A stretch of DNA of 38,221 nt. Origin: a virus (taxonomy: Duplodnaviria; Heunggongvirae; Uroviricota; Caudoviricetes). The translations under genes and the position numbers were made by a program. Positions 32,817-35,194 of the stretch are shown in pieces. Within the stretch, counting starts at the first letter, position 1. Each line of letters begins with the position of its first letter. Location of the stretch: IMG/VR virus record IMGVR_UViG_2585427971_000006. One strand, given 5' to 3'. The notes under the pieces were generated by a model that had not been told where the DNA came from, searched no databases, and worked only from the letters and a program-made list of their open reading frames with translations.

Positions 32817-35194
32817 ATGGCAGCAGTAAAAATCTCAGGTGTGCTGAAAGATGGTGCGGGAAAACCAATACAGAACTGCACTATTCAACTGAAGGCAAAG
32901 CGTAACAGCACCACGGTACTGGTGAACACGGTGGCTTCTGAAAATCCGGATGAAGCCGGACGTTACAGCATGGATGTTGAGCATGGTCAGTACAGCGTCA
33001 CCCTGCTGGTTGAAGGTTTTCCGCCTTCACATGCCGGGACCATTACCGTCTATGAAGGTTCCAGACCAGGTACGCTGAATGATTTTCTCGGTGCCATGAC
33101 GGAGGATGATGTCCGACCGGAGGCACTGCGCCGCTTTGAGCAGATGGTGGAAGAAGCGGCACGCAACGCTGAAGCCGCCTCTCAGAGCGCAGCGGCGGCA
33201 AAGAAATCCGAAACTGCAGCGGCATCATCGAAGAACGCGGCGAAAACCTCAGAAACGAATGCAGCTAACAGCGCACAGGCGGCAGCGACCTCAAAGACTG
33301 CATCGGCAAACTCCGCGACAGCAGCCAAAAAATCAGAAACCAACGCGAAAAATAGCGAGACAGCCGCAAAGACGAGCGAAACCAACGCAAAGTCCAGCCA
33401 GACGGCAGCGAAAACCAGCGAAACGAATGCCAAAGCCAGTGAAACTGCGGCAAAAACAGCCAGGTTGCAGCAGCCCAAAGCGAGAGCGCGGCAGCCGGTT
33501 CTGCGACTTCAGCAGCTGGATCAGCAACTGCTGCGGCTAACAGCCGGAAAGCTGCGAAGACGAGTGAAACTAACGCAAAGTCCAGCCAGACGGCAGCGAA
33601 GACCAGCGAAACGAATGCCAAAGCCAGCGAAACTGCGGCGAAAAACAGTCAGGATGCAGCAGCCCAAAGCGAGAGTGCTGCAGCTGGTTCTGCAAGCGCG
33701 GCGGCTGCTTCTGCCACTGCATCAGCCAACAGTCAAAAAGCAGCAAAAACCAGTGAAACCAATGCAAAGACAAGCGAGACTGCAGCGGCGAACTCGGCGA
33801 AAGCATCCGCTGCAAGCCAGACCGCTGCAAAAGCAAGTGAAGACGCAGCCAGAGAGTATGCAAGCCAGGCAGCAGATCCGTATAAATATGTCTTACAGCC
33901 GCTGCCTGATGTGTGGATACCGTTTAACGATTCACTGGATATGATTACGGGCTTTTCGCCATCATATAAAAAGATTGTTATTGGTGACGACGAAATAACG
34001 ATGCCTGGCGACAAGATTGTTAAGTTTAAACGTGCATCGAAAGCAACCTATATTAACAAATCTGGTGTGCTGACAGAGGCTGCCATTGATGAGCCACGAT
34101 TTGAACGTGATGGCCTGCTTATTGAGGGGCAAAGAACTAATCTTCTGCTTAATTCAACAAATCCATCTAAATGGAATAAGTCAGGCAATCTGGAACTCAC
34201 AGAAATATCCACGGATTCTTTTAATTTTACTTATGGGAGATTTACTGTAAAAGATACTCTTATTGGTCAGACAAGTGCTATTAATATCGTAACGATTTCT
34301 GGCAGTAAAGGGTTTGATGTCACAGGTGATGAAAAATATGTGACCATTTCATGCCGTGTAAGAAGTGATGTTGAAAATATAAGGTGTCGTTTAAGATTTG
34401 AACACCATGATGGTTATACTTACACTTTTTTGGGAGATGCTTACCTCAATTTATCAACACTTGTAATTGATAAAACTGGTACTGCTGCAGACCGTATTAT
34501 TGCAAAGGCTGTAAAAGATGAGGTTACTGGTTGGATTTTCTATCAGGCTACAATTAATGCACTAGATACAGAGAGCATGATTGGTGCGATGGTTCAATAC
34601 GCTCCTGTAAAAGGTTCAGGTACAGCATCTGGAGACTATCTGGATATCGCAACTCCACAAGTGGAAGGTGGATCAAGTGCTTCGTCATTTATTGTAACTG
34701 ATATAACTGCAAGCACTCGCGCAAGCGATATGGTGACAGTCCCAATCAAGAATAACCTTTATAATCTTCCTTTTACGGTTCTTTGTGAGGTACATAAGAA
34801 CTGGTATAAAACGCCAAATGCAGCACCGCGTGTTTTTGATACCGGCGGTCATCAAACCGGAGCGGCTATTATTCTTGGCTTCGGTCGTTCAACAGATTAC
34901 GACGGATTTCCTTATTGTGATATAGGTTTGGCTAACAGACGGGTAAACGAAAACGCATCGCTTGAAAAAATGGTTATGGGGATGCGTGTAAAGTCAGATC
35001 AGTCTACGTGCTCAGTAAGTAACGGGCGTATATCCAGCGAAAAGAAAGCCACATGGTCCTATATTCAGAACTCCGCAATTATCCGTATTGGAGGCCAGAC
35101 TACAGCCGGGTTGCGTCATTTATTTGGTCATGTCAGGAATTTCAGAATATGGCACAAGGCATTGACTGATGCTCAGATGGGGGAGTCAATCTAA
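32817..35194 (+). pseudogene. side tail fibre (stf-like) interrupted by a 1-nt frame change in an A-run inside a tandem repeat; C-terminal LamG-like domain
   Basis: N-terminus MAAVKISGVLKDGAGKPIQNCTIQLKAKRNSTTVLVNTV matches lambda Stf from memory; frame 0 is fibre-like to about 33455 and then becomes Arg/Gln-rich nonsense, while frame 2 is open from 33443 to 35194 and continues the KTSETNAK repeats (codon-by-codon check, no stops); second repeat copy has one more A at the equivalent position. Confidence 0.6.

Follow-up and report, generated by a model that had tools for sequence, protein, structure and literature searches.

Is a phage gene that is read in two frames broken by mutation, miscopied in the record, switched on and off, or recoded during translation? 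The question is raised by the side tail fibre gene, stf, in IMG/VR virus record IMGVR_UViG_2585427971_000006, a stretch of 38,221 nucleotides (nt) from a member of the Caudoviricetes that is called the window below. The gene is a member of the lambda Stf family, split in the recorded sequence by a deficit of one base in a run of A residues, inside a tandem repeat of about 190 nt. Comparison with its relatives gives roughly an even chance to a genuine and non-programmed contraction of the run from six residues to five (A6 to A5) by replication slippage, in a prophage where loss of the fibre would be neutral because no capsid can be made.

Results

The predicted product matches PF08400 ("prophage tail fibre N-terminal") over residues 3-132 with E=2.6e-67 (the curated cut-off is 26.6 bits), and it is 59% identical to lambda orf-401 over 341 amino acids, with a much higher identity over the first 120. 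The gene is therefore stf with a lambda-like N-terminus, as a first-pass annotation of this DNA had proposed. It belongs to the late operon of a lambdoid prophage that adjoins zinT, and it follows J (27979-31374), lom (31442-32041) and an IS200C insertion. The PF08400 domain, the location after J and lom and the single open reading frame (ORF) of the relatives all point to membership of the lambda Stf family. The N-terminal domain is followed by a shaft which is rich in Ala, Ser, Thr, Lys, Glu and Asn and made of sub-repeats of 21 and 42 nt.

Frame 0 starts with the ATG at 32817 and ends at the stop at 33944 after a run of 162 out-of-frame codons (residues 214-375) rich in Arg, Gln, Lys and Pro. 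The earliest candidate start codons in the downstream frame are GTG at 33911 and ATG at 33941. It had been noticed earlier that frame 0 turns into nonsense while another frame stays open for about 1.7 kb to 35194, and this description is accurate (Table 1).

Table 1. Coordinates of the stf gene, its repeats and the RNA genes of the prophage (positions in the window)
Feature	Position	Strand	Remarks
stf (side tail fibre), frameshifted	32817-35194	+	2,378 nt here; 2,379 nt (793 amino acids) in EC958
5' ORF as read in the window, 375 amino acids	32817-33944	+	residues 1-213 native, aligned to lambda orf-401; residues 214-375 out of frame
Open stretch of the true downstream frame	33443-35194	+	1,752 nt; rest of the shaft repeats and C-terminal receptor-binding half
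Tandem repeat copy 1	33369-33556	+	188 nt here, 189 nt (63 codons) when intact; holds the A-run
Tandem repeat copy 2	33557-33745	+	189 nt, 63 codons; equivalent site G-AAAAA at 33640-33645
A5 homopolymer, site of the one-base deficit	33452-33456	+	A6 in EC958 and 527 complete-genome records
RNA genes (DicF, sok, two tRNAs, STnc100)	175-226; 5637-5808; 8804-9054; 9753-9942	-; +; +; +	

The two near-identical copies of the repeat have 160 of 189 nt and 57 of 63 amino acids in common in the intact reference. The segments that were first delimited (33368-33464 and 33557-33654) belong to a real repeat, but they are the best-conserved 5' halves of copies that are 189 nt long. The spacing from copy start to copy start changes from 188 nt upstream of 33452 to 189 nt downstream of it, and copy 1 is therefore one base short at 33452-33456. 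Pairwise alignment of the copies, which had been suggested as a check, gives one gap only and places it at the A-run. The deficit of one base thus stands, but copy 1 does not have one A fewer than copy 2 as first described: both copies have five, since copy 2 reads GCGGCG-AAAAA-C (GCG AAA AAC) and the base that is absent from copy 1 aligns with the G there. Codons 212-214 are GCA AAA AAC in the intact gene and GCA AAA ACA in the window, so that the frame shifts after Lys213.

The reference set consisted of 5,426 complete RefSeq Escherichia coli genomes. About 200 of them carry at least 80% of stf, and the top 40 matches span 2,415 nt against a query of 2,414 nt. When compared with E. coli strain EC958, of sequence type 131 (ST131), all 38,221 nt of the window are accounted for with 0 substitutions and 2 deletions, namely one A at 33452-33456 and 133 bp at 18530/18531. 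Copy 1 of the repeat reads GCGGC-AAAAAA-CAG in EC958 and GCGGC-AAAAA-CAG in the window. A6 is taken as the ancestral state of copy 1 because it is what EC958 has, in a region of 11.4 kb around stf without any other difference from the window.

In EC958 the gene (coding sequence EC958_RS11105, protein WP_001554173.1) is one ORF of 793 amino acids, and restoring one A in the window gives the identical protein. PHROG 1419, a profile of 793 positions, covers the intact protein in full (positions 1-793, E=0). EC958 has the same neighbours in the same zinT-adjacent prophage: J, lom, IS200C, stf, an ORF of 93 amino acids, a Peptidase_S74 fibre module of 234 amino acids and an ORF of 95 amino acids. 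The single ORF in EC958 together with the full-length PHROG match indicates that one ORF is the normal state of the gene. This answers the concern that homologues might share the two-ORF arrangement. The prophage, its stf gene and the intact allele are already public and annotated in hundreds of ST131 genomes.

Three probes with the same flanks and A5, A6 or A7 (70, 71 and 72 nt, respectively) were run against the complete genomes. The A6 probe is found exactly in 527 records. The A5 probe has an exact match in 0 of the 5,426 genomes; its best matches reach 98.6% identity, equal to one gap, and none reaches 99%. The A7 probe is found exactly in none of them. EC958 and the 527 records thus differ from the window in having A6 and a single ORF of 793 amino acids, where the window has A5 and a split gene.

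Searches for the A5 allele elsewhere were made with an exact 40-mer of the site, which returned nothing from IMG/VR or the GTDB representative genomes and one JGI/GenBank metagenome contig, VOFH01002794.1. The stf gene in this contig (region 35831-39908) is diverged, with 27 mismatches in 604 nt, and has the same A5. It is wrecked by a stop after 86 codons and a deletion of 242 nt of shaft repeats, with J and lom intact, and it represents a more advanced stage of stf decay.

Exact look-ups of the products of 375, 385 and 427 amino acids that can be read from the window gave no record. The product of 417 amino acids from the ATG at 33941 is on record in 33 blocks. Three of the contigs with this product have a fully intact stf that was split by the gene caller, and several others begin inside stf, in the 5' half of which short-read contigs break. 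Every contig with this product that covers the site of the A-run has A6. In several public assemblies with an intact A6 stf the recorded calls are split into an out-of-frame ORF of 109 amino acids and the ORF of 417 amino acids. Such splits are an artefact of gene calling in the low-complexity shaft, and a recorded split is not evidence of a frameshift.

Two other assemblies have lost a base in the same gene. In GCA_949813075.1 an A is lost from the other A6 run of stf, at window 33327-33332, and in GCA_045907945.1 a G is lost at stf nt 602, which is window 33418; there are 10 similar places. Both deletions give the pattern of one ORF of 375 and one of 417 amino acids. Thus stf has been frameshifted independently in a few other lineages, which fits relaxed selection on a resident prophage and also fits published work in which Stf+ lambda lost stf mostly by insertions and deletions in short runs of one nucleotide (PMC2762979).

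The second deletion, of 133 bp, is private to the window and lies in the gene for an HK97-type major capsid protein. It leaves the downstream sequence out of frame, since 133 is not divisible by three, and its flanks share no microhomology. The capsid gene is split by it into ORFs at 18253-18546 (97 amino acids) and 18543-19337 (264 amino acids). The deletion is absent in EC958 and in every matching genome inspected among 677 with the same flanks. The junction was searched for in the 5,426 complete genomes with a 54-mer centred on it (27 nt from either side), a design in which a word has to cross the junction to seed, and no match was found. In an index of 153 billion genes, both capsid fragments are on record in one place, the Logan assembly of SRR1824517, where a contig of 13.6 kb runs across the junction with 100% identity to the window. 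The deletion is genuine because it is reproduced base for base in this independent read-based assembly. The window comes from the SRR1824517 isolate or a very close relative. The prophage cannot build capsids and is defective as a virus, and a null allele of stf would therefore be without further consequence.

Discussion

If the contraction is genuine, strand slippage during replication may have shortened A6 to A5 in codons 212-214. The ribosome would then read 162 out-of-frame codons after Lys213 and end at 33944, and the remaining shaft repeats and the C-terminal receptor-binding half would not be joined to the N-terminal domain for tail attachment. The product would be limited to an N-terminal fragment that ends in a nonsense tail and, by analogy with lambda PaPa (PMC12617516), no functional side fibres would be expected. 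The lesion would amount to neutral decay, as the prophage was already defective in its capsid. The base would then be missing from the DNA itself and not just from the assembly.

Several results argue for a genuine mutation. The run at 33452-33456 is the sole discrepancy with EC958 among 227 homopolymers of at least 5 nt in the window (66 of them of at least 6 nt), and the assembly is thus not generally error-prone. The private deletion in the capsid gene is verified, so the prophage of this isolate is indeed decaying. Single-base deletions are also present in the same gene elsewhere (33327-33332 and nt 602), and the same A5 is seen in VOFH01002794.1.

Other results weigh against a mutation and speak for an error of base calling or assembly, in which case the isolate has A6 and an intact stf of 793 amino acids, and the deposited sequence alone is frameshifted. 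None of the 5,426 complete genomes has A5, against exact A6 in 527 records. The products of 375 and 385 amino acids are also off record in SRR1824517, from which the capsid fragments are recorded. The missing products are weak evidence, as contigs from short reads are often interrupted in the 5' half of stf and annotation pipelines leave pseudogenes untranslated. The contraction of a homopolymer by a single base is a classic error of base calling and assembly, and pyrosequencing, ion-semiconductor and long-read platforms make it more often than any other. Furthermore, natural divergence would not usually give 2 private indels and 0 private substitutions in 38 kb. The same imbalance led us to consider an artificially altered or misassembled window, which was rejected for the capsid lesion because that deletion is reproduced and so is genuine. 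What stands against an error at the A-run is that it would be the only one among the 227 homopolymers, that the other private lesion is confirmed by an independent read-based assembly, that other lineages have real frameshifts of stf, and that an unrelated contig shares the A5. An error is a serious contender, of slightly less than even probability. The odds between a genuine mutation and an error are roughly even, and both readings are mundane.

A genuine contraction of the run would be of a known kind, the situation of lambda PaPa in another member of the Stf family and at another site, by a route that has been documented experimentally. The parallel with lambda PaPa had been drawn in the first-pass annotation and is well founded: NC_001416 annotates stf as orf-401 plus orf-314, and this split is described in the literature as a frameshift relative to Ur-lambda (PMC12617516, PMC3509688, PMC9659904). 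The two genes belong to the same family, have the same position after J and lom, and each is one ancestral ORF split by a frameshift. Putting back one base joins the ORFs of the window into a homologous full-length ORF, as in a pseudogene of the lambda PaPa type, and the outcome expected for both is a phage without side fibres. They differ in the site of the frameshift, at codon 214 of 793 in the shaft repeats in the window and near codon 400 of 774 in lambda, and in the C-terminal receptor-binding half and the lack of a tfa homologue downstream in the window. They also differ in their carrier: the stf gene of the window sits in a resident prophage whose capsid gene is broken, and that of lambda PaPa in a laboratory-propagated phage.

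The mutational route is illustrated by Gallet, Shao and Wang (2009), who found that 15 of 19 stf mutants of Stf+ lambda were frameshifts, with indels nearly all in short homonucleotide runs (PMC2762979). The lesion in the window follows the same route. The experimental mutants were selected in the plaque growth of a lytic phage, whereas the lesion in the window is without evidence of selection and lies in a defective prophage.

It is tempting to see in the short A-runs of the Ala-, Ser-, Thr- and Lys-rich shaft repeats a "soft" evolutionary toggle, with slips that switch the side fibres off, yet this is very doubtful. The idea rests on four independent events within about 130 nt (33327, 33418, and 33452 in two lineages), which came from a biased look-up. 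To revert, the run might regain its lost A, or RecA might recombine the two 189-nt copies of the repeat into one. In the second case, an exchange upstream of the run would remove 188 nt and leave an in-frame ORF of 729 amino acids; the longest exact homology available for it is 29 nt. If such a toggle were real, lambdoid phages would alternate between fast- and slow-adsorbing forms under selection in structured or mixed habitats (PMC2762979).

A phase-variable contingency locus, in which the A-run slips back and forth often and toggles the production of side fibres in the population, is highly improbable. It had been offered earlier as an alternative, and it is easy to see why: the lesion sits in a homopolymer, the other one-base deletions cluster with it within about 130 nt (window 33327, 33418 and 33452), and structured habitats can select for loss of Stf (PMC2762979). 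The clustering is again a product of the biased look-up, with three to four cases. A tract that toggles would vary in length among hundreds of independent isolates, and this one does not; A6 was the sole tract length found among the 5,426 complete genomes, and phase variation at this run was rejected on that ground. The tract is just 5-6 nt long, where homopolymers that drive phase variation usually reach at least 7-8 nt.

The signature of a contingency locus was also looked for in the intact gene as a whole. When synonymous codons were permuted, no enrichment of homopolymers was found: stf has 13 runs of at least 5 nt, with 12.4 +/- 2.3 expected, and 4 of at least 6 nt, with 4.2 +/- 1.6 expected. 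The runs come about as a side effect of Lys-Asn and Lys-Thr dipeptides, and this candidate was rejected as well. The equivalent run in copy 2 is interrupted by a synonymous G, and the prophage is unable to make capsids anyway. The contingency genes of Neisseria, Haemophilus and Campylobacter resemble stf in having a homopolymer frameshift in a gene for surface interaction, but the tract in stf is of insufficient length and shows neither polymorphism nor enrichment, and the change looks like a one-off mutation.

Recoding could be imagined if a minority of ribosomes slipped by -1 on A-AAA-A with tRNA-Lys, or if RNA polymerase stuttered, so that some full-length Stf would be made. The frame is restored by a shift of -1, the Lys codon AAA in the P site re-pairs perfectly one base back (GC-A AAA-A), and the tRNA-Lys of E. 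coli is slippery on strings of A, as in dnaX and insertion sequence (IS) elements. The zero frame has no slippery heptamer of the form X XXY YYZ, as the codons are GCG GCA AAA ACA GCC, and only a single-tRNA slip on A-AAA-A is possible at the run. No stimulatory RNA fold was found at or after the site in the 120 nt at 33440-33560, where the minimum free energy of -43.6 kcal/mol is close to the average of -42.9 for shuffled sequences (z = -0.21). Slippage by the polymerase requires about 8-9 A or T. The run did not evolve for recoding because the site is in frame, as A6 in a single ORF, in all relatives, and any read-through would be an unselected leak at a low level. With neither heptamer nor structure, and with a two-frame arrangement that is not conserved in homologues, a programmed frameshift was rejected, and recoding in any form is highly improbable.

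The two ORFs are best annotated as one frameshifted stf pseudogene, or as a gene of 793 amino acids if reads give A6, and they should be treated neither as two genes nor as a recoding site. The prophage is widespread in ST131, and the stf lesion together with the capsid deletion identifies the copy in the window as a defective one. This is of use when the inducibility of the prophage is judged and when the receptor-binding module is mined for host-range engineering. Beyond annotation the import is small; a genuine contraction would add a further natural example of side-fibre loss of the lambda PaPa type.

The C-terminal module and other features of the prophage

The C-terminal half of stf (33900-35194) is unrelated to that of lambda. 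It has 92% nucleotide identity to the tail protein of the 110-kb Salmonella phage vB_Si_CECAV_FGS017 and 75% identity to a "lateral tail fiber" of phage KurtStettler. In the PDB it has a weak match only, to the head spike fibre of the Rhodobacter capsulatus gene transfer agent (RcGTA; E=2.6e-4). No Tfa-type chaperone of tail fibre assembly was found downstream of stf, where the ORF of 93 amino acids has no Pfam match and matches only a PHROG of unknown function. The region at 35194-36487 holds this ORF, the 234-amino-acid Peptidase_S74 module, which is a stand-alone chaperone module with a match to just the last ~240 positions of PHROG 3299, and the ORF of 95 amino acids. Since there is no tfa and the ORF of 93 amino acids and then the Peptidase_S74 module follow, the C-terminal half is considered a receptor-binding module other than that of lambda.

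IS200C occupies 32090-32800 (tnpA at 32187-32696) between lom and stf, and EC958 has the same insertion. It contains a match to Rfam STnc490 at 32105-32228. Terminator-like hairpins are found at 32068-32089 and 32778-32796, the latter just upstream of the stf start codon. The insertion could alter the read-through of late transcription into stf.

A motility screen of EC958 by transposon-directed insertion-site sequencing (TraDIS) lists motility-enhancing insertions in EC958_2136, annotated as a phage related tail fiber protein, and in EC958_2149, annotated as a phage DNA packaging protein (PMC5425062, Table 1). By their old locus tags both could lie in this prophage.

Among the RNA genes of the prophage, sok adjoins a gene that is annotated as hokD in EC958. 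The two tRNAs are assigned by ARAGORN to Met (CAT) and Arg (TCT), and EC958 annotates the first as tRNA-Ile.

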